From IMG/VR virus record IMGVR_UViG_2718218453_000007: a DNA stretch of 46,144 nt; one strand, given 5' to 3'. Positions 21,135 through 46,144 of the stretch are shown in pieces. The stretch is from a virus (Duplodnaviria > Heunggongvirae > Uroviricota > Caudoviricetes). The notes below the pieces were generated by a model, which had not been told where the DNA came from, ran no database searches, and saw only the letters and a program-made list of their open reading frames with translations. The position numbers and the translations under genes were made by a program. Numbering within the stretch: position 1 is the first letter of the stretch; the number at the start of each line of letters is the position of its first letter.

Positions 21135-24815
<3,681 letters not shown>

Positions 24816-24841
<26 letters not shown>

Positions 24842-25361
24842 TCAGCAACCCCGGTATCAGTTCATCCAGCGCGGCTGCTTTGTTCATGGCTTTGATGATA
24901 TCCCGTTTCAGGAAATCAACATGTCGGTTTTCCAGTTCCGGAAAACGCCGCTGCACCGACAGGGGGATCCCGTCGAGAATACTGGCAATTTCACCTGCGA
25001 TCCGCGACAACACGAAAGTACAGAATGCGGTTTCCACCACTTCAGCGGAGTCTCTGGCATTCTTCAGTTCCTGTGCGTCGGCCTGCGCACGCGTAAGTCG
25101 ATGGCGTTCGTACTCAATAGTCCCTGGCTGGAGATCTGCCTCGCTGGCCTGCCGCAGTTCTTCAACCTCCCGGCGCAGCTTTTCGTTCTCAATTTCAGCA
25201 TCCCTTTCGGCATACCATTTTATGACGGCGGCAGAGTCATAAAGCACCTCATTACCCTTGCCACCGCCTCGCAGAACGGGCATTCCCTGTTCCTGCCAGT
25301 TCTGAATGGTACGGATACTCGCACCGAAAATGTCAGCCAGCTGCTTTTTGTTGACTTCCAT
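24816..25361 (-). CDS. nu1: Terminase small subunit Nu1
   Basis: 181-aa ORF MEVNKKQLADIFGASIRTIQNWQEQGMPVLRGGGKGNEVLYDSAAVIKWYAERD... matches lambda Nu1 essentially residue for residue from memory. Confidence 0.95.
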
Positions 25362-25379
25362 TGTTCATTCCACGGACAA

Positions 25380-25550
25380 AAACAGAGAAAGGAAACGACA
25401 GAGGCCAAAAAGCTCGCTTTCAGCACCTGTCGTTTCCTTTCTTTTCAGGGGGTATTTTAAATAAAAACATTAAGTTACGACGAAGAAGAACGGAAACACC
25501 TTAAACCGGAAAATTTTCATAAATAGCGAAAACCCGCGAGGTCGCCGCCC
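25380..25550 (-). other. cos region: cosN cohesive-end sequence (25539-25550) and cosB upstream of nu1
   Basis: Plus strand AGGTCGCCGCCC at 25539-25550 is the reverse complement of the lambda 12-nt cohesive end GGGCGGCGACCT, followed by CGCGGGTTTTCGCTATTTATGAAAATTTTCCGG as at the lambda left end. Confidence 0.85.
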
Positions 25551-25749
25551 CGTAACCTGTCGGATCGCCGGAAAGGACCCGCAAAATGATAATAATTATC
25601 ATCTACATGTCACAACGTGCATCTACGCCATCAAACCACGTCAAATAATCAATTATGACGCAGGTATCGTATTAATTGATCTGCATCAACTTAACGTAAA
25701 AACAACTTCAGACAATACAAATCAGCGACACTGAATACAGGGCAACCTC

Positions 25750-25983
25750 ATGTCAACGAAGAACAGAACCCGCAGAACAACAACCCGCAACATCCGCTTT
25801 CCTAACCAAATGATTGAACAAATTAACATCGCTCTTGATCAAAAAGGGTCCGGGAATTTCTCAGCCTGGGTCATTGAAGCCTGCCGCCGGAGACTGTGCT
25901 CAGAAAAAAGAGTTTCTCCTGAAGCAAACAAAGAAAAGAGTGACATTACTGAATTGCTCAGAAAACAGGTTAGACCAGATTGA
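25750..25983 (+). CDS. YlcI-like small protein (DUF3950 family), lambdoid right-end gene
   Basis: MSTKNRTRRTTTRNIRFPNQMIEQINIALDQKGSGNFSAWVIEACRRRL resembles DLP12 YlcI and the lambda right-end ORF, from memory. Confidence 0.6.
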   Translation: MSTKNRTRRTTTRNIRFPNQMIEQINIALDQKGSGNFSAWVIEACRRRLCSEKRVSPEANKEKSDITELLRKQVRPD

Positions 25984-26025
25984 AGCAATTTAGATAATCG
26001 TGCAGACTACGCCCCCTCATATCAC

Positions 26026-26451
26026 ATGGAAGGTACTACAATGGCTCAGGTTGCCATTTTTAAACAAATATTCGATAAAGTGCGAAATAATTTAAACTAT
26101 CACTGGTTTTATTCTGAACTAAAACGTCACAATGTCTCACATTACATTTACTATTTAGCCACAGAGAATATTCATCTTGTTCTTGAAAACGATAATACGG
26201 TTTTAATAAAAGGACAGGGTAAGGTTGTAAATGTAAGATTTTCAAAAAATAAATGCCTTATAGAAGCCACCTTAAAAGGATTCAAATCAGGAGAGTTATC
26301 ATTTTACGAATACAGGAAAAATCTTGCTACAGCAGGGGTTTTCAGATGGATTACAAATATCCACGAAAACAAAAGGTATTACTATACCTTTGATAATTCA
26401 TTACTCTTTACTGAGAACATTCAGAACACTACACAAATATTTCCGCACTAA
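26026..26451 (+). CDS. YbcV-like protein (DUF1398 family)
   Basis: 141-aa AT-rich ORF; resembles DLP12 YbcV family from memory; lies between cos and the lysis genes where lambda carries bor. Confidence 0.5.
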
Positions 26452-26710
26452 ATCATAACGTCCGGTTTCTTCCGTGCCAGAACCGGACTCGCTGGCATGA
26501 TGAAATATGTGTACCCGGTAACCCCGGTGTGCATCGTTTTTGATTATTCCCGCACACTCGCGCAGAAGGAGTTCCCCGTCGGGCTACGGTCTCTGTTAAT
26601 ACGGGAATACGGCGACGATACAGCGCATGATGTGTCAGGCTTGAATACCTTTATCCTTTAAAAGGGATATCAGTTAAGTTATCCCGTGTAGGGTATAAAC
26701 CATTATCAAA

Positions 26711-26740
26711 GCCACTCTGTAGGAAGTGGCTTTTGTAATG
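26711..26740 (+). terminator. Putative intrinsic terminator downstream of YbcV-like gene
   Basis: GCCACT-ctgtaggaa-AGTGGC hairpin followed by TTTTGT. Confidence 0.4.
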
Positions 26741-26942
26741 GCAATAAAAAGCCCCGCGAATGCGAGGCTAAATCCTGGTATTTGTAATGACTGGCTCTTA
26801 TCTCAACGCAGCCCCTTACCGCGCGCAAAATGCTCAATATCAAGCATCAGCAATGAGATGTTTAATCTGGATTCACTCCAGAAGTGAGCACCACCCTGTC
26901 TACAGAGCCAGATGTGAAGGATGATGAGTAAAATTATCGCTA

Positions 26943-27425
26943 TCATCGAAGGCATTGCGTCCTGATGTATTCCTGAAGCGTTCTCAGTGCTGTTTGGTCG
27001 CGGATAATTCCGTCCCGGATACCGAGAACGTTTCGTCCAGCAACTGGAGAGAGTTCGACGGTGGCATCATTGCCCATGCCGGAGGCGCTGGAGGTTTCGG
27101 CTGAGGATGGCACAGAGCATTTTCCTTTGACGAGCACCCGACCACCATTATCAAGCTTGCGCCGAAGAGCATCATTTTCAGCTTTCGCATCAGCCAACTC
27201 CTTCGTGTATTTAGCATCGAGTACATCAGCAGCACGCTGGCGTTGCTGCATGTCAGTAATGGTGGCGGTCGCCTGCTTCAGCTCACTGACTTTTTTATCA
27301 CGCTGTTCTTTGTAGGCGATGGCGTTATCACGGTAATGATTGACCGCCCACGACAGGCAGACGATGATGCAGATAACCAGAGCATAAATAATCGCGGCGA
27401 CTCTGCTCACTGATCTATCCCCCAA
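26943..27425 (-). CDS. Rz: Spanin inner-membrane subunit Rz (i-spanin)
   Basis: N-terminal TM segment [17 protein letters not shown], coiled-coil body, overlaps the endolysin 3' end; contains an embedded +1-frame lipoprotein ORF. Confidence 0.85.
26984..27190 (-). CDS. Rz1: Spanin outer-membrane lipoprotein Rz1 (o-spanin), embedded in Rz
   Basis: Embedded [24 protein letters not shown]... with lipobox VVGC and Pro-rich mature region ([11 protein letters not shown]). Confidence 0.8.
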
Positions 27426-27940
27426 CAGGCTAATGCGCTTTCCTGGTCACGACGAATAACCTGTCCATAGCAGTTATTTGAACGTATGCGGCAATCGCGC
27501 CCACCATCTTTTATCCACCAGCGAATCGCCTCGCATGCACCCTTACGATCACCGGCATTCAGCCGCTTATAAAACGTCGACGGGAAACACTTACCGGGGC
27601 CAATGTTATAGGGACAAAATGACGCTATACCCGCTTTCTGTGGTTCGGTCAGTGGTACTTTAATATTGCGCTCCACCCATGCCAGCGCCTTATCACGTTC
27701 AATAGCGTTAACCTGGTCGCATTTTTCCTTCGACAGCTTCATTCCCGGTATGACGGGCTTACCATCCACCATTATGGCACCACGACAGATGGTCCATATA
27801 CCGGAACCATCGCGGTATGCCGTAGTGTGGTTACCCTCTTTTTCATCCAGAAACTGGTCAAGGATTTGAGGAGCTGACGCGCCTGCAGCAATCAGCGCCA
27901 GAACAGCAGCTGACAGGCCGTATTTGATTTTTGCGCTCAT
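27407..27940 (-). CDS. SAR endolysin (T4-lysozyme-like muramidase with signal-anchor-release domain)
   Basis: N-terminal weakly hydrophobic Gly/Ala-rich segment [16 protein letters not shown] followed by lysozyme catalytic region (E..D..T spacing in [22 protein letters not shown]). Confidence 0.85.
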
Positions 27941-27995
27941 GGATATTTATCAGGATGCTACCAATGAAAGATACTGGAAAGCCAACTGCAAAAAG

Positions 27996-28310
27996 CTAAC
28001 AACCCGTAATCGAGTTATCAGAACTGTTAATTTTTATGGTATACCGCGCCTCTGAACAGGGGCGCGTTTCTGGCAACAGCTCGTCCCCTTCACATAACCC
28101 GGCAGCAACATCCAGGAAGACCTGTCTGATGCTCCTTCTGGCTGCTGCCTCATAAAACTCCAGCGCGGCACCTTCAACACGGTCCAGCGAGATGTCCAGG
28201 TCAAAAATTTCACCGTCAAAGCGGTTTTTGTCCCGTAACGCTAAAGTTACCGTAACTTTATTCTCAAAATTGCGGATCCCTTTCACAATCAGTTCATAGT
28301 TTTGAGTCAT
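27996..28310 (-). CDS. Hypothetical protein inserted between holin and endolysin
   Basis: 104-aa ORF with tight spacing to the holin stop; no family recognised. Confidence 0.45.
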   Translation of the reverse strand: MTQNYELIVKGIRNFENKVTVTLALRDKNRFDGEIFDLDISLDRVEGAALEFYEAAARRSIRQVFLDVAAGLCEGDELLPETRPCSEARYTIKINSSDNSITGC

Positions 28311-28314
28311 TGAA

Positions 28315-28530
28315 TTACTCTCCCCGTGCAGCCTTACGCTTGTCTTCTTTAATCTTGAAATAAAGATTTGTCAGATACGTCAGCAGGCCAAAAACCAGGC
28401 TACCCAGCACACCGATTGCAGCCCACTGTGACGGAGTTACTTTATCGAGCAACTGTAAAAACCAGTACCCGGCACTACCTGCTGAGGTGCCATAGGCGAC
28501 ACCCGTTGTTAACTTATCCATGGATTTCAT
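28315..28530 (-). CDS. Pinholin, phage-21 S21-like, with dual-start motif
   Basis: [71 protein letters not shown] closely resembles the S21 pinholin (71 aa) from memory; MKSM dual start; track ORF extends upstream. Confidence 0.9.
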
Positions 28531-28597
28531 AACCCCACCTCGCAGATGCGGGTGCTGTGTAATGGAAATAAAAAGGCCACCTGACGTGGCCACCAGA

Positions 28598-29650
28598 TTA
28601 TTTCCCCACCAGCTCGTTTATCTCTTTCACTGTCTGGTTAAACCGCTCTGACTCAAGCTCAACACCTAAGGCCCGACGCCCCAGCGCCATTGCTGCTTTT
28701 ATTGTGGAACCGGATCCCATAAAAAAATCAGCAACCAGATCACCAGGTCGACTACTGGCATTGATTATTTGCCTGAGCATATCCGCCGGTTTCTCACACG
28801 GATGTTTACCCGGGTAGAACTGAACGGGTTTATGCATCCAGACATCGGTATAAGGCACGGAGACTGATACGGAGAAATAGCGCCGGAGAGATTTAAACTC
28901 ATCCAGCAATTCAGAATATTTACGATTCAGTGAATCATAAGATGCCACCAGCTGGTGGTGTGGTTGTTCCAGTTGTTGTTCCTGAAACTTCTCTGCCGCT
29001 ATACGGGAAAACAGTGCCTGTAACTTCCGATAGTCAGCCTCATTCGGCAACTGCCACTGACTGGCACCAAACCAGTGGGAAACCATATTTTTCTTACCTG
29101 TGGCTTCGGCAATTTGTTTTGCCGTTATACCCAGTTCGGCACGAGCATCCCTGAAATACGATATCAGCGGTGCCATTATGTGCTGTTTGAGTTCCCTTTC
29201 TTTTGCTGCATAGCCGTCACTTTTGCCGCGATATGGCCCCTGGTAATGTTCAGCAAACAGAACGCGCTCTGTGGCAGGAAAATATGCGCGCAGACTTTCT
29301 TTATTACACCCATTCCAACGTCCGGACGGCTTCGCCCAGATGATATGGTTAAGCACGTTGAAACGTTCACGCATCATGATCTCAATATCAGATGCCAGGC
29401 GATGCCCACAGAACAGGTAAAGGCTTCCGGCAGGTTTTAACACCCGCCAGAACTGGGCCAGACAGTGGTCCAGCCACTTAAGGTAATCTTCGTCCCCTTT
29501 CCACTGATTGTCCCAGCCGTTGGGTTTCACCTTGAAGTACGGCGGATCGGTAACAATCAGGTCAATGGAATCATCAGGCAGGGACTGAATAAAATGCAGG
29601 CAATCAGCGTTGATTAAATCAACACTGTTTATTTTTACAGTATTTTTCAT
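28598..29650 (-). CDS. Orphan DNA methyltransferase, beta-class (N6-adenine or N4-cytosine)
   Basis: DPPY motif ([11 protein letters not shown]) near the N-terminus and AdoMet-binding FxGxG motif (DFFMGSGST) near the C-terminus; no adjacent restriction endonuclease ORF. Confidence 0.85.
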
Positions 29651-29800
29651 GGATCAGTAAGCGTAACTCTGGTAGGCTCACTCTGCTTTTGCGCTAAAGC
29701 AGTGGGCCGTGGTTCGCTTGTGACCAGTAGGCATGAGCGAATGGCTGGCAGGTGCTACCAACACCCACCAGCCGCCCATTTTCACAGCAGGAAACCGCCA

Positions 29801-30004
29801 TTACTGGCAGCGTCTGAATTTATTCCCGTACCCGCCGTTATCCTTCGCCAGACCCGCCAGAACTAACTGAGTCAGTATTAACTGGCACCGGGCTTCGCTT
29901 ACTCCGGTAGTTCTCGTCATCATGCGTGGCGTTACCCACTTGTCAGCAGGTAAGAAATGAAGGACTGCGGCGGCGGTTTCTGTCATATCTTGCTGTTTTA
30001 GCAT
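29801..30004 (-). CDS. Small hypothetical protein (possible winged-helix), first ORF after the tR'-like terminator
   Basis: 67-aa ORF from the ATG at 30004 preceded by AAGGGA Shine-Dalgarno; track ORF (95 aa) extends upstream. Confidence 0.4.
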   Translation of the reverse strand: MLKQQDMTETAAAVLHFLPADKWVTPRMMTRTTGVSEARCQLILTQLVLAGLAKDNGGYGNKFRRCQ

Positions 30005-35782: not shown

Positions 35783-36601
35783 TTACCCCCTGAATCCTGC
35801 CGGGATCTGGCTGTAGTCCACGTTGTCGTAACTGGCTTTGAAGTACGGGTCCTCGCGTCTGGCTGCAGATACCGCAGGAACTTCCCAGGATTCTTCGAAA
35901 TGACGATCCGGACCAAAGAACGTGACAGCCTGTTTCACAAATTGTGTGCCGCTGTTACCCATCGCAGATACCCAGCCCGCATAGCGTTTCACACCTTCCA
36001 GCATGGTTTCGGGGTTTACCCCCTCATTCAAACGGGCTTTCCAGGCTTTGAAGGCTGCAGATTTTGAATTGCCACCAGCACGTTTGGGATATGCCAGCCA
36101 TGCCTGCTCAAACTCCGGAGAGTATTCCGGTCGGTTTGAACGAACTCGCACAGACTCATCAGCAGATGCACCAACAGCTATTGGTTCATTGACTGGTTCT
36201 TTGACTGGTTCAAAAGAGTGACTGGTTCTGGGTGAATCTCCTGCACTACCCCCTGGTGCAACTCCTGCACTACCTGGTGAATTTGCTGCACCAGATAGTG
36301 AATTATTTGCACTACCCCCTAGTGAATCTCCTGCACCATCCAGATGAAGGAGATAGATATTACTTGAGTTACCTTTTTCACCTTTCCGGGTGACTTTTTT
36401 TACCAGCCCGGACTCACAAAGGGCCGCAATATGATTCATCACAGAACGTTTGCTAATCTCGCACTGGTCAGCAATATGCTGGTAGCTGGGCCAGCACTCA
36501 CCCTGATCGCTGGCATTATCAGCCAGCTTGATCAGAACCAGTTTTCGCAATGGATTACCCACTCGAATTTTCATCGCTTTAACCATCAGCTCCATACTCA
36601 T
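35783..36601 (-). CDS. Replication initiator, lambda O-like (N-terminal HTH, repeat-encoded linker)
   Basis: N-terminal KLVLIKLADNASDQGECWPSYQHIADQCEISKRSVMNHIAAL HTH; central low-complexity linker GGSANNSLSGAANSPGSAGVAPGGSAGDSP encoded by DNA direct repeats. Confidence 0.75.
   Translation of the reverse strand: MSMELMVKAMKIRVGNPLRKLVLIKLADNASDQGECWPSYQHIADQCEISKRSVMNHIAALCESGLVKKVTRKGEKGNSSNIYLLHLDGAGDSLGGSANNSLSGAANSPGSAGVAPGGSAGDSPRTSHSFEPVKEPVNEPIAVGASADESVRVRSNRPEYSPEFEQAWLAYPKRAGGNSKSAAFKAWKARLNEGVNPETMLEGVKRYAGWVSAMGNSGTQFVKQAVTFFGPDRHFEESWEVPAVSAARREDPYFKASYDNVDYSQIPAGFRG
36180..36340. repeat. Candidate replication origin iterons inside the O-like gene
   Basis: Three copies of TGACTGGTTC (36184-36227) followed by three to four copies of a ~19-bp unit TGCACTACC(C)CCT(G/A)GTGAA (36241-36336) with internal dyad symmetry. 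Confidence 0.6.
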
Positions 36602-36834
36602 GCTGCACCTCCGAGATGCTTCATGTTTTTTCCGGAGCGAAAGGCTATAAGCGGCATACTGACGCGGTAATTACGGCCCAGCGGTTCACAAATCACCTTC
36701 TGACATTCACGGTCAACCAGGCTGACACGTAGAACATGCCCTGCTGGCGTGGTGTACCACTGCCCAACTGTGGGTGTTGATATTTTTTTACGCTGAAATA
36801 AACGGTAAATGTTGAGGAGCAACGGATTAAGCAT
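36598..36834 (-). CDS. Small hypothetical protein
   Basis: 78-aa ORF overlapping both neighbours by a few nt (operon-like); no family recognised. Confidence 0.35.
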   Translation of the reverse strand: MLNPLLLNIYRLFQRKKISTPTVGQWYTTPAGHVLRVSLVDRECQKVICEPLGRNYRVSMPLIAFRSGKNMKHLGGAA

Positions 36835-37663
36835 GACGATGCCCTCCGCTGATATTCAGGAGACGGTGAATATGAAAATTAGCCTTATCCGCCAGACGAA
36901 TACGTTCAGCTTGCAAGTTAAGAAGGGTTTCTACCAGAACCTGATGTGCCTGCGGATCCGAAAGAGTTACCTTGCGCAGAGCACGTAGTGCAGTTGTTAC
37001 ATAACTGAGTTTATGTAAGTCTTCATCATTCAGACGAGTGAGGGCTGGGACAGTAGCCATGATGGCAGCCTCCTTGATCGGTGAAATACTTCCACCACCG
37101 GAAACGCCAATTTCGCTGGTGGTGAACTGAACGGGGTTGGCGTAACCGGTGATCAAGGAAACCGGCGCATCTTTCGATGCCCCCGCCCAGCCCACCATAA
37201 CTTTGATGTGAGCAAATGCGGACGATAAAAAAGACGCTGGCGCGTCATATATCGCCTTGATCAATTCCAGGACGCCAATCCCGGCACCCGCTTTATAAGG
37301 TGCCTGAACAGTGTAACGTCCCGGAATGGCAGAATCAATGTGCTGGTGGTCCTTCACACTCAACAAAATCACGCTTGAATTTCCACAAAGGACTAAAGCA
37401 CTCATGCGGGTAGTCTTTGCGAAGATAGATAACGCGCTGTGTTTCTGGCTCCCAACGAATAACATGAACATAAAGTCCTCTTCCGTCACGAAACCAGCGG
37501 TTAAGTTCCTGCACAACTCGCCCCCCACAGTCAGGTAAAGTTCTCTGTGGTTACTTACAGCCAGGAGATTTGGTAATCTGCATTCATGCCGTAACAACAG
37601 GTGTTCAGCGACGCTGACCACCAGCTGTTGCGACAAACGGTTATTTGCCGTTAAACTGTTCAT
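36827..37663 (-). CDS. Hypothetical early protein (278 aa)
   Basis: ORF in the early-right operon between the CII-like and O-like genes; no family recognised. Confidence 0.5.
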   Translation of the reverse strand: MNSLTANNRLSQQLVVSVAEHLLLRHECRLPNLLAVSNHRELYLTVGGELCRNLTAGFVTEEDFMFMLFVGSQKHSALSIFAKTTRMSALVLCGNSSVILLSVKDHQHIDSAIPGRYTVQAPYKAGAGIGVLELIKAIYDAPASFLSSAFAHIKVMVGWAGASKDAPVSLITGYANPVQFTTSEIGVSGGGSISPIKEAAIMATVPALTRLNDEDLHKLSYVTTALRALRKVTLSDPQAHQVLVETLLNLQAERIRLADKANFHIHRLLNISGGHRHA

Positions 37664-38223
37664 GCGTTAGTTTCTCCACAGACACAAAACGCCACGACGC
37701 CCGGAGCTGCACACTCGCGGGCGTCACTCTTTTCTGGAGCGCAAAAGATTTTGTAGACCAGTGCTGCATGCTCCTGGAGCTTCGAAATTGACAGATACAA
37801 CTCATCATTAATTGCTGTCTGCTCGTGTGGCTCCACTACCCCATCTTCGATTGCCGAACGAATCTGCTTTGAGTAACTCCCGATCTGTTCGATGACTTCC
37901 AGCAGGCGCTGGTTTATATCGGCGTTCTCTACTTCCTCAATTTCAGGAAGCGATACAAACACCCCACCAGCAGACTGTGCGACAGCATCCGCAATGTAGT
38001 GAGTGCCAGCCGCGCGCTGTAAAATCATTGCCCATCCCAGCGGGAAAATCTGATCGCCATCTGCACGAAGGCGGTTGAATAAAGCGTTCTCTGTTACATC
38101 TAGCCACTCAGCAGCTTCAGCGTACCCCCCCGGCAACGCCGCGATAGTTTTTCTGACAGCTTTCACGTACCACTCAGGCTGTTTTTCTACTTTCCAGTGA
38201 TGCTTACCCACGGTTAGCCTCAT
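37660..38223 (-). CDS. CII-like / YdaT-like early regulator
   Basis: 187-aa ORF immediately downstream of the Cro-like gene; resembles the phage CII (CP76) / YdaT family by position and HTH-like segment AEAAEWLDVTENALFNRL. Confidence 0.4.
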   Translation of the reverse strand: MRLTVGKHHWKVEKQPEWYVKAVRKTIAALPGGYAEAAEWLDVTENALFNRLRADGDQIFPLGWAMILQRAAGTHYIADAVAQSAGGVFVSLPEIEEVENADINQRLLEVIEQIGSYSKQIRSAIEDGVVEPHEQTAINDELYLSISKLQEHAALVYKIFCAPEKSDARECAAPGVVAFCVCGETNA

Positions 38224-38254
38224 CGTTCTGTGGTTAAAAATTGAAGGTGTTCTG

Positions 38255-38455
38255 TTAATCTTTCGGATAGATATCCGGTCTTAAGTCAGATTTCGTAATT
38301 GCACCTGACGTGCATTGCTCAAGTTTTTTAGCCAGCACAAAACTGGCTTTTTTATAACCATTGAAAACCAGCCGTAAATAGCCTGGTGTTGAGCCAACTT
38401 TTCCGGCCAACTCGCCCTGCTGTTCTTTGGTTAAAGAGTCCCAATACGCTTTCAT
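38255..38455 (-). CDS. Cro-like HTH repressor (YdaS family)
   Basis: 66-aa ORF MKAYWDSLTKEQQGELAGKVGSTPGYLRLVFNGYKKASFVLAKKLEQCTSGAITKSDLRPDIYPKD; GGAGG Shine-Dalgarno 11 nt upstream; the longer track ORF overlaps the divergent repressor gene. Confidence 0.7.
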   Translation of the reverse strand: MKAYWDSLTKEQQGELAGKVGSTPGYLRLVFNGYKKASFVLAKKLEQCTSGAITKSDLRPDIYPKD

Positions 38456-38545
38456 ACAATATGTACCTCCGATATACATATTACATGATTGAGATGAACC
38501 TTCAAGATACTTGTACCCTATCGGTACAAAGGTTTTAATTTCTTT
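38456..38545. promoter_or_regulatory. Immunity operator/promoter region (OR-like) between divergent Cro-like and repressor genes
   Basis: Palindromes ATGTA-N9-TACAT (38461-38479) and TTGTACC-ctatc-GGTACAA (38511-38529); minus-strand promoter TTGAAG-16 nt-TAATAT (38478-38505); repressor ATG at 38546 has no obvious Shine-Dalgarno (possible leaderless mRNA as for lambda cI). Confidence 0.55.
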
Positions 38546-39220
38546 ATGAAAACAGTCCATGACATCCGGCGGTCTAACGCCAGAAAACTGAGAGATGGTG
38601 TTGGCGGGAATTCTTCCTTTGCCACCATGATTGATCGCGAGCCAACCCAGACCAGCAGGTTTATGGGAGATGGTGCTACTAAAAATATCGGTGACAGCAT
38701 GGCACGGCACATCGAAAAATGTTTCGACCTGCCTGTCGGATGGCTTGATCAAGAACACCAGACAACAAACATCACAAAAAAACCTGATGTTTCAATTACT
38801 AACAAACAAATAACGTTAGTCCCTGTCATATCATGGGTACAGGCCGGAGCATGGAAAGAAGTTGGCTATTCTGAGGTTGATTTGAGCACAGCAGAAACTT
38901 ATCCCTGCCCTGTACCCTGTGGCGAAATGACTTATATCTTGCGGGTGATTGGTGATTCAATGATTGATGAGTACCGCCCGGGAGACATGATTTTTGTAGA
39001 TCCTGAAGTCCCTGCCTGCCACGGTGACGACGTTATTGCATTGATGCACGATTCAGGCGAAACCACCTTCAAGCGGTTGATAGAAGATGGAACACAGCGT
39101 TATCTCAAAGCATTAAACCCAAACTGGCCTGAGCCTTACATTAAGATTAACGGTAATTGCTCTATAATTGGTACAGTGATTTTCTCGGGAAAACCAAGAA
39201 GATACACAATAAAGGCCTAA
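38546..39220 (+). CDS. CI-like prophage repressor (HTH + S24 LexA-like peptidase domain)
   Basis: C-terminal ...ILRVIGDSMIDEYRPGDMIFVDPE...ALMHDSGETTFKRL... with the Ser (GDSM) / Lys (FKRL) dyad arrangement of S24 autopeptidases. Confidence 0.85.
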   Translation: MKTVHDIRRSNARKLRDGVGGNSSFATMIDREPTQTSRFMGDGATKNIGDSMARHIEKCFDLPVGWLDQEHQTTNITKKPDVSITNKQITLVPVISWVQAGAWKEVGYSEVDLSTAETYPCPVPCGEMTYILRVIGDSMIDEYRPGDMIFVDPEVPACHGDDVIALMHDSGETTFKRLIEDGTQRYLKALNPNWPEPYIKINGNCSIIGTVIFSGKPRRYTIKA

Positions 39221-39232
39221 TCAATATTTATG

Positions 39233-39257
39233 AACCTGCTTCGGCAGGTTTTTTTAT
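39233..39257 (+). terminator. Intrinsic terminator after repressor gene
   Basis: AACCTGC-ttcg-GCAGGTT hairpin followed by T7. Confidence 0.7.
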
Positions 39258-39259
39258 GC

Positions 39260-39292
39260 TTGACAATGTACCCATGAGATACATAATGTATC
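39260..39292 (+). promoter_or_regulatory. pL-like early promoter with overlapping palindromic operator
   Basis: TTGACA (39260-39265), 16-nt spacer, CATAAT (39282-39287); 15-bp perfect palindrome GATACATAATGTATC (39278-39292) over the -10 element, sharing the ATGTA/TACAT half-site with the OR palindromes. Confidence 0.55.
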
Positions 39293-39738
39293 TAAAAGAA
39301 ACATAACACAGGCAAGATTAAAACAAAATTTGGTTGTAACACGGCGTATGGCACATGCGTCGTTAGCGGTCTGGTGACGTTAAAGGGGACAATCCACTCC
39401 TTGCTCGAGCAAACAAACCAGGTAGCCGGAATGTGCAAGTCAATGATGATGCTGATAAGACGCCTAACCAGCGTGGCGATTCGGTTTGACGCCTGGGAAG
39501 AGACCAGGGTGCAACGATGAGGGCATTTATGGAACCGCGACAAAGTGTGGTGCCGTAACTGGCTAAGTGCTCTCAGCGTTGTGGTAATCCGCGAAATGGC
39601 GCGGCGGTAAGTATGGCGGGGTTACTCTTTCCCCGTTGAGGACACCGGATTGTCAGGTTGACCATACGCCTGAGTGACAACCCCACCACAACAGCCACTG
39701 CTTTGGCGGTACCAGTTTGTACACTTGCTTCCGGCTGG

Positions 39739-39753
39739 TACCGCTCTTTTTAC
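39739..39753 (+). promoter_or_regulatory. boxA-like element (possible nutL component) in the early-left leader
   Basis: CGCTCTTTTTACAA resembles the boxA consensus (rrn TGCTCTTTAACAA; lambda CGCTCTTA) and lies in the long leader between pL-like promoter and the first early gene. Confidence 0.3.
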
Positions 39754-39888
39754 AAAACAGAGAAGAGCATCACCGGACGACGGGCTCATAACCCAATCCA
39801 TCCGGGCGGCTGCCACCGCAGGTGTTCTTCTCTGTTTTGTGGAGAAACCAACCGACCTTGCAGGGTCGATATGATGAGGAGCAGCAAA

Positions 39889-40251
39889 ATGGCTAGCGAA
39901 CGCAGTACTGATGTACAGGCATTTATCGGGGAGCTGGACGGCGGCGTATTTGAAACCAAAATCGGCGCAGTTCTCAGTGAAGTCGCTTCCGGTGTGATGA
40001 ACACGAAAACCAAAGGTAAGGTCTCACTCAACCTGGAAATCGAACCGTTTGATGAGAGCCGTGTGAAAATCAAACATAAACTCTCATATGTCCGCCCGAC
40101 TAACCGCGGGAAAATTTCCGAAGAAGACACCACCGAAACGCCGATGTATGTCAATCGCGGTGGTCGCCTGACTATTCTGCAGGAAGACCAGGGACAATTA
40201 CTGACTCTTGCCGGTGAACCTGACGGAAAACTCCGCGCAGCAGGTCATTAA
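39889..40251 (+). CDS. YfdP-like early protein (120 aa)
   Basis: ATG at 39889 preceded by GAGGA Shine-Dalgarno; same length and position as CPS-53 YfdP upstream of YfdQ; the longer track ORF (39658) extends into the leader. Confidence 0.5.
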   Translation: MASERSTDVQAFIGELDGGVFETKIGAVLSEVASGVMNTKTKGKVSLNLEIEPFDESRVKIKHKLSYVRPTNRGKISEEDTTETPMYVNRGGRLTILQEDQGQLLTLAGEPDGKLRAAGH

Positions 40252-40316
40252 TATCGTTCTTAATTAACTGATTATTTATCTCATCACTGAATATCTTTAT
40301 ATAGTGAGGACTTATT

Positions 40317-41141
40317 ATGTCTCAGAACTTAGACGCAACCGCAATTAATCAAATCCATGCCCTTATTTCTTCTCAGGGTGTTAATGAAATTATCAGTAAG
40401 ATTGGTGCCGATGCTGTGGCATTACCTGAGAATTTCCGCATTCATGATCTGGAAAAATTTAATTTAAATCGCTTCCGTTTCCGTGGCGCGCTTTCCACTG
40501 CCAGCATCGATGACTTTACCCGTTATTCTAAAGATCTTGCAGATGAAGGCACCCGCTGCTTTATCGATGCCGATAATATGCGAGCCGTCAGTGTGCTTAA
40601 CCTGGGCACTATTGATGAACCAGGTCACGCAGATAACACCGCCACTCTCAAACTGAAAAAGACAGCACCGTTCTCTGCTCTGTTGTCTGTTAATGGCGAG
40701 CGTAACTCCCAGAAATCACTGGCAGAATGGATTGAAGACTGGGCCGACTACCTTGTGGGCTTTGATGCTAATGGTGACACCATTCAGGCAACAAAAGCGG
40801 CTGCGGCGGTCCGTAAAATCACGATTGAAGCAAACCAGACCGCTGATTTTGAAGATAATGACTTCAGCGGCAAACGCTCCCTGATGGAGTCTGTCGAAGC
40901 GAAGACCAAAGACATTATGCCAGTGGCATTTGAATTTAAATGCGTTCCGTTTGAAGGCCTGAAAGAACGTCCATTTAAATTACGCCTCAGCATTATCACT
41001 GGCGATCGTCCTGTACTGGTTCTGCGCATTATTCAGCTGGAAGCGGTGCAGGAAGAAATGGCTAACGAATTTCGTGATCTGCTTGTTGAGAAATTCAAAG
41101 ACAGCAAAGTAGAAACCTTTATTGGTACTTTCACCGCCTGA
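40317..41141 (+). CDS. yfdQ: YfdQ-like protein (DUF2303 family)
   Basis: 274-aa ORF; length and sequence character recalled as CPS-53 YfdQ family; followed by an HD-domain gene as in CPS-53. Confidence 0.6.
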
Positions 41142-41268: not shown

Positions 41269-41805
41269 ATGTCATTTATTAAAACTTTTTCCGGGAAGCA
41301 TTTTTATTATGACAAGATAAATAAAGACGACATCAATATTAACGATATCGCGGTTTCCCTTTCAAATATCTGTCGCTTTGCCGGTCATCTTTCGCACTTC
41401 TACAGCGTCGCCCAACATGCGGTTCTTTGCAGCCAGCTGGTGCCGCAGGAATTTGCTTTTGAAGCCTTAATGCATGATGCAACAGAAGCGTATTGCCAGG
41501 ACATCCCCGCGCCACTGAAACGCCTTCTTCCTGACTATAAACGGATGGAAGAAAAAATAGACGCCGTAATCCGTGAGAAATACGGGTTACCCCCGGTTAT
41601 GAGTACGCCCGTGAAATATGCCGATCTTATCATGCTGGCAACCGAACGCCGCGATCTCGGGCTTGATGATGGCTCTTTCTGGCCTGTACTGGAAGGCATC
41701 CCGGCAACAGAGATGTTCAACGTGATTCCACTGTCGCCAGGCCATGCCTATGGGATGTTTATGGAACGCTTCAACGAGTTATCGGAATTACGCAAATGTG
41801 CATAA
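41269..41805 (+). CDS. yfdR: HD-domain 5'-deoxynucleotidase, YfdR-like
   Basis: HD-type metal-binding residues in ...LSNICRFAGHLSHFYSVAQHAVLCSQL...ALMHDATEAY...; ATG at 41269 preceded by GGAGAA; 178 aa as K-12 YfdR. Confidence 0.65.
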   Translation: MSFIKTFSGKHFYYDKINKDDININDIAVSLSNICRFAGHLSHFYSVAQHAVLCSQLVPQEFAFEALMHDATEAYCQDIPAPLKRLLPDYKRMEEKIDAVIREKYGLPPVMSTPVKYADLIMLATERRDLGLDDGSFWPVLEGIPATEMFNVIPLSPGHAYGMFMERFNELSELRKCA

Positions 41806-42674
41806 CTCATGTAGTTAGTTTTTCTGGCGGGAGAACATCCGCATATCTTGTTCACCTGATGGAAGAACAAAGAAAGGCTGGCAATAACGTCTGCTACATC
41901 TTTATGGATACCGGTTGCGAACATCCGCTGACATACCGCTTTATTCGGGAGGTTGTGAAGTTCTGGGGCATACCACTAACTGTGTTGCAGGTCGATATCA
42001 ATCCTGAGCTTGGGCAGCCAAATGGTTATACAGAATGGGAGCCAAAGGATATTCAGACGCGAATGCCGGTACTTAAACCGTTTATGGACATGGTTAAAAA
42101 GTACGGCACGCCATACATCGGTGGCGCATTCTGTACTGACAGGCTAAAACTCATCCCTTTCACGAAATACTGCGATAACCATTTCGGGCGAGGTAATTAC
42201 ATCACATGGCTGGGTATTCGTGCAGACGAACCCCGTAGGCTGAAACCGAAATCGGGCATCCGGTATCTTGCCGAACTGTCAGATTTTGATAAGTCGGATG
42301 TTATCCGGTGGTGGCGAAAACAACCTTTTGATTTGCAAATCCCGGAGCATCTCGGGAACTGTGTTTTCTGCATCAAAAAGTCAACGCAAAAGCTGGGGCT
42401 TGCATGTAAAGACGAACCAGGTCTGATGCGGGTTTTTAATGAACTGGTTACAGGCAAACACGTCAGGGATGGTCATCGCAGAACAGGTAAAGACGTTATG
42501 TACCGTGGTCACCTGACGCTTGACGGAATTGCCAGAATGTCTGCCAACAGCGACTACAGAAATTTGTATCAGGCGATGGTACAGGCCAGGCGATTCGATA
42601 CCGGCTCGTGTTCAGAGTCATGTGAAATCTGGGGTGATCAATTGGAATTGAAATTCGAAGAGGTAGGGGTATGA
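41796..42674 (+). CDS. PAPS-reductase-like / PP-loop ATP pyrophosphatase family protein
   Basis: N-terminal PP-loop-like motif VVSFSGGRTSAYL; C-terminal Cys cluster (CVFC...C..C). Confidence 0.65.
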   Translation: MCITHVVSFSGGRTSAYLVHLMEEQRKAGNNVCYIFMDTGCEHPLTYRFIREVVKFWGIPLTVLQVDINPELGQPNGYTEWEPKDIQTRMPVLKPFMDMVKKYGTPYIGGAFCTDRLKLIPFTKYCDNHFGRGNYITWLGIRADEPRRLKPKSGIRYLAELSDFDKSDVIRWWRKQPFDLQIPEHLGNCVFCIKKSTQKLGLACKDEPGLMRVFNELVTGKHVRDGHRRTGKDVMYRGHLTLDGIARMSANSDYRNLYQAMVQARRFDTGSCSESCEIWGDQLELKFEEVGV

Positions 42675-43018
42675 CAACCGAAATTAACTACCATGCACTG
42701 CTTGAGCGCGCACGGAATAAAGTGCAGAGCATTGAGTTCGCCTTAACACAGAGTGCATTCGCTGAGATTCGCGCTGAGCTTGAAGATGATTTAGAACTGG
42801 CACGGATTGCACTGGCATCTCTGGAAGTTGAGCCAGATGAACGCGCAGCCTATGAATTATTTATGGAAAAGCGTTTCGGTAAAACAGTCGATCGTCGGAG
42901 AGCAAAAAACGGTGATAACGAGTACATGGCGTGGGATATGGCTCTCGGCTGGGTCGTCTGGAAACAACGCGCTGGCATGAGTCTTTCAACTGCACAACCA
43001 CAGGAGGGTCAACAATGA
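42671..43018 (+). CDS. Hypothetical early protein (115 aa)
   Basis: ORF overlapping the upstream stop by 4 nt (translational coupling); no family recognised. Confidence 0.45.
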   Translation: MTTEINYHALLERARNKVQSIEFALTQSAFAEIRAELEDDLELARIALASLEVEPDERAAYELFMEKRFGKTVDRRRAKNGDNEYMAWDMALGWVVWKQRAGMSLSTAQPQEGQQ

Positions 43019-43209
43019 ACAACTTAATGACAACAAAACAAGTCGCCGAATTCTGTGGAGTTTCAATATCGACGGTGCTTCGCTGGAACAGTGTAAACCG
43101 GAGGACTGGTCAGAAATATCGGCCTGATTTTCCAGATCCTGATATTAAATCCTGCCCAAATAAATGGGCATCACGTAAGATATACAGGTTTGCAGGAGTA
43201 ATTGAGTAA
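43015..43209 (+). CDS. Excisionase-like HTH protein (Xis/AlpA-type)
   Basis: MNNLMTTKQVAEFCGVSISTVLRWNSV... HTH typical of small excisionase/AlpA proteins; GGAGGG Shine-Dalgarno upstream of the ATG at 43015; last gene of the operon facing int. Confidence 0.55.
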   Translation: MNNLMTTKQVAEFCGVSISTVLRWNSVNRRTGQKYRPDFPDPDIKSCPNKWASRKIYRFAGVIE

Positions 43210-43494: not shown

Positions 43495-44748
43495 TTATTT
43501 TAATTTTCCCGTACCTCGAAGAAGTGATAGGTATTGATCAGTGGCAAGTAATGGTAGATTATTCTCTTGGCTAGAGTCGATATCTCTAATTAAAATTGTA
43601 CGGTTTTTTATGCTGAACTTGTATTTAGCCTCCAGCATTGCCCAAAACATTCTTTTATTTAATCTTGATAGTCTTATAAAATTTACAAGACCTTCAAGGC
43701 TCATAACTAAAACTTTCGCCCCTTTTGACTCTTTAAGGTTGCTAATTTCGTTATAAATCTTTTCAGCACCTTCTTTCTCTAAAACAAGATCTGAGATTAT
43801 CACTAAATGATAAATACCCTTTCTGCGCTTTATTAAGCATTCCCTCCCGTCATAATTAATAACCACATCATTATTTAGAATTGGGATAACGCCTTTAACC
43901 TGATCGATCCCTTGCAATGCTTTTTTCTTATACATGCTACAAAGCTTTTCATGAGATTTCAAACCCATTTCAATCAAAGATGATGCTTTAGACTGTATAG
44001 ATAATACATAGTCATTTTCTACAATAAGAATATCAACTAGTTCTCTTTTTTTATTACCCTCAATAATATCTGGAGAAAAAAACACTTCCTCCGGTGAAAA
44101 GACCTGCCGCAAAGCATGGTATATAAGAGCTTCCTGCTCATATCCCTCAGAGCCGTTTTCACTGACGCTAAATTCATATGTTAATACGGTATCGTTTGGT
44201 TCATGAACACTTGCTAGGTAAGATTTTTTATCGATTACACTTAGTGGCAGACTAATTATTTTCTCGTTACCAGTCAAAGCATTGTTGCAGAATTCATCCA
44301 TTGCTTCATTACCTTCCCTAAATCCTGAATTGAGAGAATATGAATTAGCACAAAATTTTTTTAAACATTCACACGGTAAATTTTCCGAAACTTTTATTTT
44401 CAGGTCCATAACACGCATTGTATGCGAGTCAAAAAATGATAATAGAATACCATCATAAGCGCCTGACAATAACAAATCCAGCCCTTTAATTTCATCTACC
44501 TCTCTTGGTGGATAGGCTAGTAAAAATGGATTATCGACATTATCTTCAATCAACATCCCAATCACTAGTATATTTTTAGTAGATAAACCTACCAAAAAGT
44601 GGATAGGTGCTCCTGACCAGACGGATTTAATTATAGGAAGGCTTGATTTAAGTATTATGTGGATATTACGATTTTCACTATCTACCCACACTCCATGTAA
44701 CTCATTGTTTAAATAGGCCAAAAGTTTAGTATTCATTTCAACTTTCAT
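43495..44748 (-). CDS. Hypothetical protein (417 aa), AT-rich orphan gene between Xis-like and int
   Basis: Long uninterrupted AT-rich ORF with its own upstream intergenic region; no confident domain assignment; a possible PD-(D/E)xK-like segment (VDILIVENDYVLSIQSK) is speculative. Confidence 0.6.
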   Translation of the reverse strand: MKVEMNTKLLAYLNNELHGVWVDSENRNIHIILKSSLPIIKSVWSGAPIHFLVGLSTKNILVIGMLIEDNVDNPFLLAYPPREVDEIKGLDLLLSGAYDGILLSFFDSHTMRVMDLKIKVSENLPCECLKKFCANSYSLNSGFREGNEAMDEFCNNALTGNEKIISLPLSVIDKKSYLASVHEPNDTVLTYEFSVSENGSEGYEQEALIYHALRQVFSPEEVFFSPDIIEGNKKRELVDILIVENDYVLSIQSKASSLIEMGLKSHEKLCSMYKKKALQGIDQVKGVIPILNNDVVINYDGRECLIKRRKGIYHLVIISDLVLEKEGAEKIYNEISNLKESKGAKVLVMSLEGLVNFIRLSRLNKRMFWAMLEAKYKFSIKNRTILIRDIDSSQENNLPLLATDQYLSLLRGTGKLK

Positions 44749-44920: not shown

Positions 44921-46144
44921 TCAGTTGGTGTCTGAACCAGAACAAGTAACAATCGATTCAACTCTCTCCCACCATGCCTGGTAGGCTTTACGCTGTTCTT
45001 CTAAATAATCACTCTTGTCATAAACTTGCCATACCCCCGGCAGTTTATGACCGAGCATTATTTCTGCGATATGAGGCGCAGTAAGATCAGAAAAGTTTGT
45101 TCGTGCTGTTCGCCTCAAATCATGCAGAGACCAATGAGGGAATTGATACCCCAAACGCCGCCATGCATACTGCATTAAATTGTAAGGCAGCGACTGCAAT
45201 GATGTCCGACCAACGGGTTCCCTGCTTCCTTCCTTAGTAAAAAGCATATCGGAACCATTGTTCATAGAAATAGCGTACTTTATAAGCTCTTCAACCGGTT
45301 CAATAATGGGCCGCTTTAGCGGTTCGCCCGTTATCTCCCCAGTCTTATGTCGTTCTGGTGGTACAGTCCATACTTTATTAATGAAATCAAAATCGTCCAC
45401 CCTGGCGGTAATTAGCTCTGAACTACGGCAGCCAAAATGCAGCAATAGTTTAATGAAGGCCCGGTATTTAGGAACCATTCGAGAACCATCGATCGCAGCA
45501 TAAAGGATTTTAATTTCATCATGTGTCAGAAACCGTTTCTTCTGACCTTTACGGATATCCATATCTTTACCCGTGATATCCGACAGCGGGCGAGTTTCAA
45601 TGAGCTTTCTCTTATACGCCCAGACATGGGCCTGCTTTGCGTTAATTAGCAATCGGTCTGCTATTGCTGGAGTCTTAGTGCTAAGAGGCTCCAGGACTTC
45701 TAACCAATCATGCAATGTAGCTGCATCGTGAGGGATATTCCCGATTTTAGAGAACAGGTGCAGCTCAAACGAGCGGAGTATCTGTTCAGAGCCTTTTTTA
45801 TTTTTTACACAATATGCTTCATACCAGGCACGGATCACAGACTCTACCGTCATGGCTTCAGTAGCTTTTCGTTTTTCAGCCTGCTTGACCAATCGTGGAT
45901 TACGGTTTGACTCGAGTTCACCACGGAGACGGATAACTTCTTCTCTGGCCTCTTTTAATCCAGTTGCTGGGTAAGTTCCGATATCAAGACGCTCACCTTT
46001 CCCTGCCCATTGATAACGATATTGGAACACTACGCGACCTTTCGGTGATACTCTGACAGACAGACCATCACGATCGGATTTAACCAAAACCTTATCACGT
46101 TCCTTTCCAACGACTGAACGCAACCACGCATCAGACAGCGCCAT
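44921..46144 (-). CDS. int: Tyrosine integrase, P4-family
   Basis: N-terminus MALSDAWLRSVVGKERDKVLVKSDRDGLSVRVSPKGRVVFQYRYQWAGKGERLDIG typical of P4-type integrases; C-terminal catalytic region with HDLRRT and LGHKL...Y; start codon is the last 3 nt of the window. Confidence 0.9.
   Translation of the reverse strand: MALSDAWLRSVVGKERDKVLVKSDRDGLSVRVSPKGRVVFQYRYQWAGKGERLDIGTYPATGLKEAREEVIRLRGELESNRNPRLVKQAEKRKATEAMTVESVIRAWYEAYCVKNKKGSEQILRSFELHLFSKIGNIPHDAATLHDWLEVLEPLSTKTPAIADRLLINAKQAHVWAYKRKLIETRPLSDITGKDMDIRKGQKKRFLTHDEIKILYAAIDGSRMVPKYRAFIKLLLHFGCRSSELITARVDDFDFINKVWTVPPERHKTGEITGEPLKRPIIEPVEELIKYAISMNNGSDMLFTKEGSREPVGRTSLQSLPYNLMQYAWRRLGYQFPHWSLHDLRRTARTNFSDLTAPHIAEIMLGHKLPGVWQVYDKSDYLEEQRKAYQAWWERVESIVTCSGSDTN

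Follow-up and report, generated by a model that had tools for sequence, protein, structure and literature searches.

In phage lambda, the nutL-N leader has an RNase III-sensitive hairpin, and in T4, the species 1 and species 2 RNAs are stable RNAs of unknown function that lie in phage tRNA clusters. The put element of phage HK022 is ~70 nt long and consists of two stem-loops (PMC9378689). In the dicF locus of the Escherichia coli K-12 prophage Qin, RNase III is reported to cut downstream of DicF, giving a 72-nt form (PMC5069750), and cells in stationary phase accumulate a 190-nt DicF species whose 5′ end depends on RNase III (PMC10448788). We analyzed the early-left leader of a tailed phage of the class Caudoviricetes (IMG/VR record IMGVR_UViG_2718218453_000007; 46,144 nt, the whole of which is hereafter called the window). 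This anonymous 600-nt gap, located between a pL-like promoter and the gene yfdP, can now be tied to dicF, which is among the oldest known prophage small RNA (sRNA) loci. The leader is laid out as a stable-RNA transcription unit at the head of an mRNA operon, and we lean toward the view that it is the noncoding head of a repressor-controlled early-left operon and works as an attenuator that also produces stable RNAs.

The initial annotation had described an unusually long noncoding leader (~600 bp) after the promoter, and the comparison with related prophages bears this out, showing a genuine, conserved, and structured leader of an N-less lambdoid early-left operon. The leader runs from the promoter (39260-39287) to the yfdP start codon at 39889 without a conserved open reading frame (ORF). 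The first annotated downstream gene is yfdP (39889-40251; PGAP call with a PHROG 204 match and no Pfam family), and PGAP made no gene call in the leader stretch of a genome carrying an identical leader. The absence of any ORF of meaningful length had also been claimed. Mechanical ORFs of 48 and 66 amino acids on the plus strand and of 83 and 64 amino acids on the minus strand are in fact present, and what stands of the claim is that none of them matched Pfam and no conserved protein was found. The RNA at 39294-39900 (607 nt) was predicted to fold stably, at −230 kcal/mol (z = −4.5 versus shuffles), in agreement with its description as dyad-rich. The GC content of the leader (52.2%) is higher than that of cI and yfdP-yfdR (45-46%) but equals the median of windows of that size, and the label GC-rich holds only relative to the neighbors. 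Conservation and covariation in related prophages, which had been named as the evidence whose absence would speak against a functional leader, were clearly present in two modules, termed A and B.

The Rfam scan that had been suggested gave no family for the leader. At the gathering threshold, only C4 and isrK of Rfam 15 passed in the whole window, both outside the leader, and at E ≤ 10 over 39100-40000, no leader family was detected. Weak matches to STnc50, STnc370, and rsmX were discarded, as they reflect only the cI terminator. When homologous loci were scanned, only tRNA, DicF, C4, and isrK were returned. ARAGORN found 0 tRNA or tmRNA genes in the window, and the Rfam tRNA model (RF00005) had no match at E ≤ 10 over 39100-40000. 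By BLAST, the leader was split into blocks with differing distributions and is a mosaic of modules. The entire leader was 100% identical in E. coli CFSAN061770 and 97.6-99.6% identical in Stx2c-converting phages, Ayreon, cdtI, and 2H10. Among 5426 complete E. coli genomes, ~890 hold at least 80% of the leader and 4766 hold some part of it. The carriers of at least 80% include Stx2c and Stx2a converting phages, and given these carriers, any function of the leader would bear on toxin-phage induction. In Citrobacter, the whole leader is kept ahead of a different first gene, which indicates that it is a self-contained traveling module.

The promoter of the leader is very probably pL-like in its control as well as in its position. 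A 19-bp palindrome, ATGTACCnnnGAnATACAT, was found at exactly two sites in the 46-kb window, one in the cI/cro intergenic region (38461-38479) and the other within the promoter (39266-39284). Only 0.04 matches to this pattern are expected by chance, and two matches were reached in 0 of 100 shuffles. Because the palindrome is common to the promoter and the cI/cro region, the promoter is very probably repressor-controlled, as the term pL-like in the initial annotation had implied, and both sites are probably operators of the cI-type repressor, located at pR/pRM and pL. A promoter is annotated at the same position in Ayreon, and a terminator is annotated at the position of the cI terminator in SfV and Ayreon. 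Judging from the promoter position, transcription would start near 39294. As previously noted, no N-like gene is evident; the annotation of the leader-identical prophage lists none, nor did any of the relatives' annotations that were read, and all lambdoid carriers covered in this way have the cI-leader-yfdP layout. A related palindrome, TTGTACCCTATCGGTACAA, was also observed at 38512-38530.

We compared module B, which lies 3′ of module A in the leader, with the dicF locus. The segment at 39578-39684 was 93.5% identical to K-12 Qin (megablast), and the Qin match ends ~25 nt upstream of DicF. Module B also matched, by blastn, the P1 feature annotated as "dicF-like region," which is located just 3′ of the C1-controlled ban promoter. 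A covariance model (R1) built from 12 copies of module B scored 134 bits on the window, 123 bits on the Citrobacter copy, and 95.7 bits on P1. In the aligned copies, 95.8% of the cells were paired, compared with 33-56% when the partners were slid. Changes on both sides were found in six pairs, one of them in the candidate pseudoknot (UA in 9 sequences and CG in 3), where GUAUGG:CCAUAC is replaced by GCAUGG:CCAUGC in the P1 type and, separately, in one otherwise Qin-type copy. Covariation thus gives the fold moderate support, the limit being set by low sequence diversity. In sequence and predicted structure, module B is a homologue of the dicF-like region of Qin and P1. The homology to the Qin dicF locus and the P1 ban leader, together with the modular tRNA-slot organization described below, had gone unnoticed in the initial annotation.

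The same comparison offers a structural account of the 190-nt DicF species. Counting back 190 nt from the DicF 3′ end (~3189 in the Qin sequence, L004) leads to ~3000, where the 5′ arm of the module B closing stem, GGUUGUGG, begins. Since the count ends at this position, we infer from the coordinates that the published 190-nt DicF is module B plus DicF. The species would then be a conserved RNA domain with a candidate pseudoknot, fused to an sRNA.

DicF proper was not found in the window. The DicF model (RF00039; threshold, 48 bits) had no match over 39100-40000 even at E ≤ 10, while Qin scored 76.7 bits. In a crude duplexfold test, pairing of the leader RNA with the ftsZ translation start (−24.8 kcal/mol) was worse than that of 96% of shuffles; the value for DicF was −38.5 kcal/mol, within the best 9%. 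The leader RNA was therefore rejected as a DicF proper acting on ftsZ, there being neither an Rfam match nor ftsZ complementarity. The positional features of dicF are nevertheless present, namely, a conserved upstream element, a Rho-independent terminator, and an RNase III-type repeat. These features would also suit a DicF-type trans-acting sRNA with other targets, in which the module B/terminator RNA or a shorter 3′ piece pairs with host mRNAs in the way that DicF pairs with those of ftsZ, xylR, and pykA. Its position and flanks are those of dicF, it would end in a Rho-independent terminator hairpin, as is typical of Hfq-binding sRNAs, and the single-stranded spacer before the hairpin varies between variants in a seed-like manner. 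However, only 12 nt of spacer separate module B from the hairpin, the DicF model fails even at the relaxed threshold, and the poor pairing concerns ftsZ, the only target examined. On this evidence, we consider an sRNA of this kind quite unlikely.

Three further observations concern module B and its surroundings. A 12-mer, ATTTTCTGGTGA, is present at the region of the RNase E-generated DicF 5′ end in Qin (L004 3124-3141) and again after module A in the P1 ban leader (L224 2695-2712), and it may be a processing site common to Qin and P1. A conserved element with a long-range stem (GCGCAC...GUGCGC), a variable hairpin, and the motif UGUCGUUA was observed in Qin (L004 ~2930-3000) and in a Klebsiella phage (L226 ~1920-1990). 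In Qin-type prophages, the element lies ahead of module B, and in the epsilon15-like Klebsiella phage, it lies ahead of module A; its location coincides with the mapped, RNase III-dependent 5′ end of the 190-nt DicF. In addition, the 3′ arm of the module B closing stem (39685-39699) reads CACAACA, the GcvB R1 seed target consensus noted for the prophage anti-sRNA AgvB (PMC4104026). The 5′ arm, GUUGUGG, resembles the GcvB seed itself, and this likeness is possibly a coincidence.

Downstream of module B, an intrinsic terminator occupies the position that DicF has in Qin. Its hairpin (39705-39752) was predicted to fold at −21.2 kcal/mol (z = −3.65) and was missed by a simple terminator scan because its loop is 15 nt long. 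The stems differ between relatives but stay complementary, as in GGUGG/CCACC in variant L129 and GGCGGGUAUC/GAUACCCGCC in variant L187. The terminator is followed by a long inverted repeat, for which −47.8 kcal/mol (z = −6.6) was obtained. By eye, this hairpin is kept in ST64B with one G-C to A-U change, and in Qin, dicF and dicB are separated by a comparable long repeat. By analogy with Qin, the long hairpin is a candidate RNase III site between the noncoding part and the yfdP mRNA.

The terminator also accounts for the boxA-like string reported in the initial annotation. The string, CGCTCTTTTTACAA, is indeed present at 39742-39755, but it covers the final three paired bases of the terminator stem and the U-tract and runs into the following hairpin, and a near-identical relative (L090) reads CGTCCTTTTT at this position. 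Its CGCTCTT agrees with 7 of 8 bases of lambda boxA. The string would favor a lambda-type nut site composed of boxA and boxB. However, the bases in question belong to the terminator, as its paired 3′ arm and U-tract, and are lost in the near-identical variant, no N is annotated, and no boxB hairpin was identified, without a dedicated scan for one. A small protein, encoded by the 29-codon ORF at 39431 or by the minus-strand ORFs, had some appeal as well. Some phage records annotate small ORFs in the leader, and PHROGs 3651 and 33599 match the mechanical ORFs at 39622-39816 (minus strand) and 39674-39874 (plus strand), which lie over module B, the terminator, and the long hairpin. These two PHROGs probably are families built from gene calls over conserved noncoding DNA. 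The 29-codon ORF (39431-39520) was rejected because it falls in three different frames and ranges from 5 to >36 codons across 50 homologues. The 64-amino-acid ORF was likewise rejected, its frame being broken across the terminator loop in the Citrobacter homologue, and Pfam and PGAP support neither. The proposal of a nut site or small proteins is largely refuted, and we regard both as essentially excluded.

Module B is itself the content of an exchangeable slot. The arms GUUGUGG...CCACAAC are constant, and what they enclose differs between phages. In phiV10, SPN1S, and the Klebsiella phage, the slot holds a genuine tRNA-Arg(UCU), with the acceptor stem overlapping the GUUGUGG arm. In mEp460-type phages, ST64B, P1-like plasmids, and various Enterobacterales prophages, it holds unrelated cassettes of 100-130 nt. 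The cassettes of the mEp460, ST64B, and P1-plasmid types were considered as diverged forms of module B and rejected, since R1 found none of them at E ≤ 1, and none was called a tRNA by ARAGORN or Rfam. A hairpin with a U-run follows the slot in every context examined (Qin DicF, phiV10, P1, and ST64B), whether the slot holds module B, a tRNA, or a cassette. The slot layout, with a tRNA or cassette between fixed arms, appears to be undescribed. In lambdoid, P1-like, and epsilon15-like phages alike, it reveals one modular plan for early operons, consisting of a closing stem, an exchangeable cassette or tRNA, a terminator, and a candidate RNase III hairpin.

Module A lies upstream of module B in the leader. 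Fifty homologues with <90% identity were aligned, and pairs were counted on a hand-drawn structure. In this alignment, 95.8% of the cells were paired, compared with 28-44% with slid partners, and changes on both sides were detected in 15 of the 29 pairs, a number that 0 of 500 shuffles reached. The closing pair of hairpin H1, for example, is A-U in 27 sequences and G-C in 23. An RNAalifold structure in which H1 is replaced by a nested long-range helix of two invariant strings was set aside, as H1 covaries. These two strings, the H1 loop and an AUGUGC located 75 nt downstream, are perfectly complementary and form a candidate pseudoknot. They never vary, and the pairing is for that reason beyond the reach of covariation. 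Thirty-eight columns of the alignment are invariant, including stretches of ~20 nt that do not change across genera. In the 3′ extension, as read from the sequences, the pairing arms are kept (GAGAGCA/UGCUCUC), while the insert varies between phages and includes T-arm-like pieces in SPN1S and in the L097 class.

Module A was found in three settings. It directly follows pL in N-less lambdoids; it lies directly after tRNA-Ile and before the helicase gene ban in P1, P7, and P1-like plasmids; and it stands after a promoter and directly before tRNA-Arg(UCU) in the epsilon15-like phages phiV10, SPN1S, and a Klebsiella phage. Scans of viral contigs gave 176 distinct copies, and a scan of one genome per species detected it in ~22 Enterobacterales species, among them Kosakonia, Citrobacter, Klebsiella, Phytobacter, and Erwinia dacicola. 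Matches to its 18-mer GTAGCCGGAATGTGCAAG outside the order (bins labeled Bacteroides, Dysgonamonadaceae, and Oscillospiraceae, and Azonexus) were dismissed as chance, since no other module A motif was present; the flanks of the matches in the three bins look protein-coding. The P1 record has no feature on module A. Full-text literature searches, including searches with the invariant strings, returned no description of either module; the texts covered did not include the P1 genome paper or Faubladier & Bouche 1994, which possibly discuss part of it. Module A is a well-supported structured RNA found in neither Rfam nor the phage records read and, as far as these sources and the literature searched show, is an undescribed motif of lambdoid, P1-like, and epsilon15-like temperate phages.

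The exchange of modules could also be taken as a sign of decay, the leader being a stable-RNA or tRNA operon whose relic modules were spread by recombination at shared junctions and whose function is limited to the terminator. The tRNA-Arg in the B slot of epsilon15-like phages, with the shared GUUGUGG junction overlapping its acceptor stem, would fit this history, as would the T-arm-like fragments in some inserts and the many unrelated cassettes between identical GUUGUGG...CCACAAC arms. However, compensatory substitutions preserve the helices of both modules, and the 38 invariant columns of module A are shared by Escherichia, Salmonella, Klebsiella, Kosakonia, Citrobacter, and Erwinia prophages and three unrelated phage types. 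Furthermore, the window has no tRNA by ARAGORN or the Rfam tRNA model. We therefore consider decay very unlikely.

The most interesting of the alternatives is processive antitermination of the put type, in which the RNA of module A, module B, or both would bind the elongating polymerase in cis and carry it past the terminator at 39705-39752 and later ones, replacing N. The authors of a 2025 survey offer as a guess a put-like RNA for yfdP-yfdQ-yfdR phages (PMC12315714), and the lambdoid carriers with annotation that was read, all of the cI-leader-yfdP layout, have no annotated N. In many prophages, module A begins ~10-25 nt from a promoter, as does putL (PMC9378689). Its ~20-nt invariance across genera suggests a conserved partner in a host machine, and in Qin, P1, and the window, module B immediately precedes an intrinsic terminator. 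The initial annotation had likewise pointed to HK022 put, but a resemblance was not found. Local blastn of the leader against HK022 22000-30000 (cI-pL-nun) gave only chance matches of 10-23 nt (E ≥ 0.66). HK022 has both putL and putR, whereas the invariant 18-mer and R1 each occur once in the window, no repeat is shared between the leader and the pR side over 36000-41000, and the module B motif has one exact copy, two matches with three mismatches being no commoner than in shuffles. The two stems of put also contrast with the five or more helices of module A, spread over ~190 nt, and with the four helices and candidate pseudoknot of module B, spread over 115 nt. In P1, module A is 2.4 kb from the promoter and directly before ban, without a visible terminator after it, and the terminator is tied to the slot rather than to module B, as it also follows tRNA-Arg and unrelated cassettes. 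Taken together, these data make a put-like mechanism unlikely.

We return to the attenuator that also makes stable RNAs. A regulated promoter is followed by interchangeable stem-closed RNAs, a terminator, and a long duplex before the ribosome-binding site, and it is this combination that leads to the proposal. Its observed basis is the anatomy with its homologies, the covariation in the modules, an operator of the repressor type, and the lack of a conserved ORF. When the cI-type repressor leaves the promoter operator, polymerase would transcribe the independently folding modules A (~250 nt) and B (115 nt), and a large share of transcripts would end at 39746-39752, giving a primary RNA of ~460 nt. 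By analogy with Qin, cleavage at the stems that close the modules would split this RNA into two products, one of module A and one of module B and the terminator (~175 nt), the latter being the presumed counterpart of the 190-nt DicF species. The model for such cleavage is Qin, in which RNase III and RNase E release the 190-nt RNA (by our count, module B plus DicF) and the 53-nt DicF; where a relative has a tRNA in the B slot, RNase P would take part as well. Read-through RNA would be cut by RNase III in the 22-bp hairpin, which would free the yfdP-yfdQ-yfdR mRNA and set its 5′ end. Termination efficiency, processing sites, and product stability would be as suggested by the Qin experiments. The terminator and long hairpin, being thermodynamically strong and positionally conserved, support this proposal.

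Several points weigh against the attenuator. Its termination and cleavage steps are transferred wholly from Qin to this phage. The leader lacks DicF proper together with its seed regions and its RNase E site, AAUUUUCUGG, so an sRNA of the 53-nt type is not expected. The model leaves the roles of modules A and B unexplained, as well as the ~20-nt stretches of module A that are invariant across genera. In addition, yfdP and the genes downstream of it need to be expressed past a strong terminator, for which leaky termination has to be assumed.

With regard to these roles, we tentatively raise the possibility, which we hold to be rather doubtful, that module A, perhaps with module B, represents a new class of functional phage RNA in three unrelated temperate lineages of Enterobacterales phages, namely, N-less lambdoid, P1-like, and epsilon15-like phages. 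It would act either as a cis read-through RNA analogous to put or, once excised, as a stable RNA that attaches to a conserved host component or imitates it, as would a decoy for a defense directed at RNA. If the former were true, it would answer how N-less lambdoids of the yfdPQR type run their early-left operon. In any case, the leader provides defined candidate elements for how N-less yfdP-yfdQ-yfdR phages pass early terminators, and "small RNA" and "cis-acting RNA element," both offered in the initial annotation, were the right categories. The coordinates of all features are shown in Table 1.

Table 1. Features of the leader and the adjoining immunity region (positions in the window)
Feature	Position	Strand	Description
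CII/CP76-like gene	37660-38223	−	Immunity region
cro-like gene	38255-38455	−	Immunity region
LexA/S24-family cI (Peptidase_S24, ymfK-like)	38546-39220	+	Immunity region
Intrinsic terminator of cI	39232-39258 (hairpin 39232-39251)	+	8-bp stem GAACCTGC/GCAGGTTT, then T-run; from terminator scan
pL-like sigma-70 promoter	39260-39287	+	TTGACA-16-CATAAT, 11/12 matches in promoter scan; just 3′ of cI terminator
Operator-like palindrome ATGTACCCATGAGATACAT	39266-39284		Between −35 and −10 hexamers
Module A	39329-39577	+	Structured RNA; core 39329-39515 and 3′ extension 39516-39577
Module A, H1 hairpin	39341-39363	+	Loop UAUGGCACAUG, invariant or nearly so
Module A, candidate pseudoknot	39351-39356 (GCACAU) with 39431-39436 (AUGUGC)	+	Perfect complementarity, H1 loop to invariant AUGUGC
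Module A, H2	39370-39374 with 39418-39422	+	
Module A, invariant stretch GGUAGCCGGAAUGUGCAAG	39421-39439	+	
Module A, H3	39439-39441 with 39475-39477	+	
Module A, H4	39460-39474	+	T-arm-like hairpin
Module A, H5	39492-39508	+	Hairpin with GAAGAG loop
Module A, 3′ extension stem	39519-39525 / 39568-39574	+	GAGGGCA/UGCUCUC; encloses variable insert, ends in junction CAGC before module B
Module B	39578-39692	+	115 nt, stem-closed multi-hairpin RNA
Module B, closing stem P1	39578-39585 / 39685-39692	+	GUUGUGGU/ACCACAAC
Module B, P2	39589-39604	+	
Module B, candidate pseudoknot	39611-39616 with 39662-39667	+	GUAUGG/CCAUAC
Module B, P3	39617-39635	+	
Module B, P4	39647-39682	+	
Intrinsic terminator	39705-39752	+	13-bp stem GGCGGUACCAGUU/GGCUGGUACCGCU, 15-nt loop, then CUUUUUA
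Long inverted repeat	39752-39840	+	~22-bp stem around branched insert; 25-nt arms, 84% complementary
Small hairpin CGACCUUGCAGGGUCG	39853-39868	+	
Shine-Dalgarno GAGGAG	39876-39881	+	Followed by yfdP start codon at 39889; with the small hairpin, part of 39853-39903

The window as a whole is a lambdoid prophage adjoining prfC/osmY, with lambda-like tail and head genes and a Q-type antiterminator. In its pR operon, Rfam detected two RNAs in direct succession on the minus strand, the C4 antisense RNA at 37115-37202 (82 bits) and isrK at 37227-37303 (64 bits). The pair lies inside a long ORF (36827-37663) with an Ash-family Pfam match, annotated as "immunity region" in SfV and Ayreon, and was also observed in SfV, ST64B, and an mEp460-type contig. 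With C4 and isrK in the pR operon, an sRNA-plus-terminator element is thus present in each of the two early operons of this phage type. Beyond ~41.8 kb, the window diverges from the leader-identical genome CFSAN061770. At 41796-42674 (plus strand), it has a 292-amino-acid ORF with a PAPS-reductase domain, in place of the hypothetical gene and the DUF551 gene of CFSAN061770. Next come an Xis-like helix-turn-helix ORF (43015-43209), a 417-amino-acid ORF without a Pfam family (43495-44748, minus strand), and an integrase (44921-46144, minus strand).

Of the described systems, Qin dicBF is the closest. It is likewise a pL-equivalent operon under a cI-like repressor, DicA, and its module B, ~93% identical to that of the window, corresponds to the 5′ two-thirds of the 190-nt DicF RNA. 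In both loci, a terminator hairpin at the same place is followed by a long RNase III-type inverted repeat before the next gene. Unlike Qin, the window does not have the 53-nt DicF, the RNase E site, or the 5′ seed, and its terminator has a different stem and loop. Module B is preceded in Qin by ydfABC and a different upstream module instead of module A, and the downstream gene is dicB in Qin and yfdP in the window. Module B, the terminator, and the hairpin together are a variant of the known dicF-type prophage locus, agreeing with the "dicF-like region" in sequence and structure and departing from DicF itself. The P1 ban operon has module B and a terminator ~40-200 nt 3′ of the C1-controlled promoter, and it has module A directly after tRNA-Ile and before ban; as in the window, both modules are noncoding and belong to a repressor-controlled early operon. 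By contrast, module B comes first in P1 and is separated from module A by 2.3 kb that include tRNA genes and tciABC, and only the dicF-like part is annotated.

The remaining systems share architecture with the leader. HK022 put, whose read-through of terminators in cis depends on the beta′ zinc-binding domain, is also a structured RNA just 3′ of pL in an N-less lambdoid phage with terminators downstream, but it differs in sequence, size, and fold, and the leader elements are single-copy. In the lambda nutL-N leader, too, a long stem immediately precedes the ribosome-binding site that serves the first gene of pL. The window leader differs from it in having no N protein and no boxA/boxB pair that survives comparison, in being ~3 times longer, and in containing an internal intrinsic terminator. 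The species 1 and 2 RNAs of T4 are structured RNAs other than tRNAs that are transcribed together with phage tRNAs, and tRNA-processing nucleases presumably release them. Module A, which is not known to be related to them in sequence, likewise stands next to a tRNA gene, namely, tRNA-Ile in P1 and tRNA-Arg in epsilon15-like phages. In contrast to the T4-type stable RNAs, the unit described here is embedded in the early operon of temperate phages.

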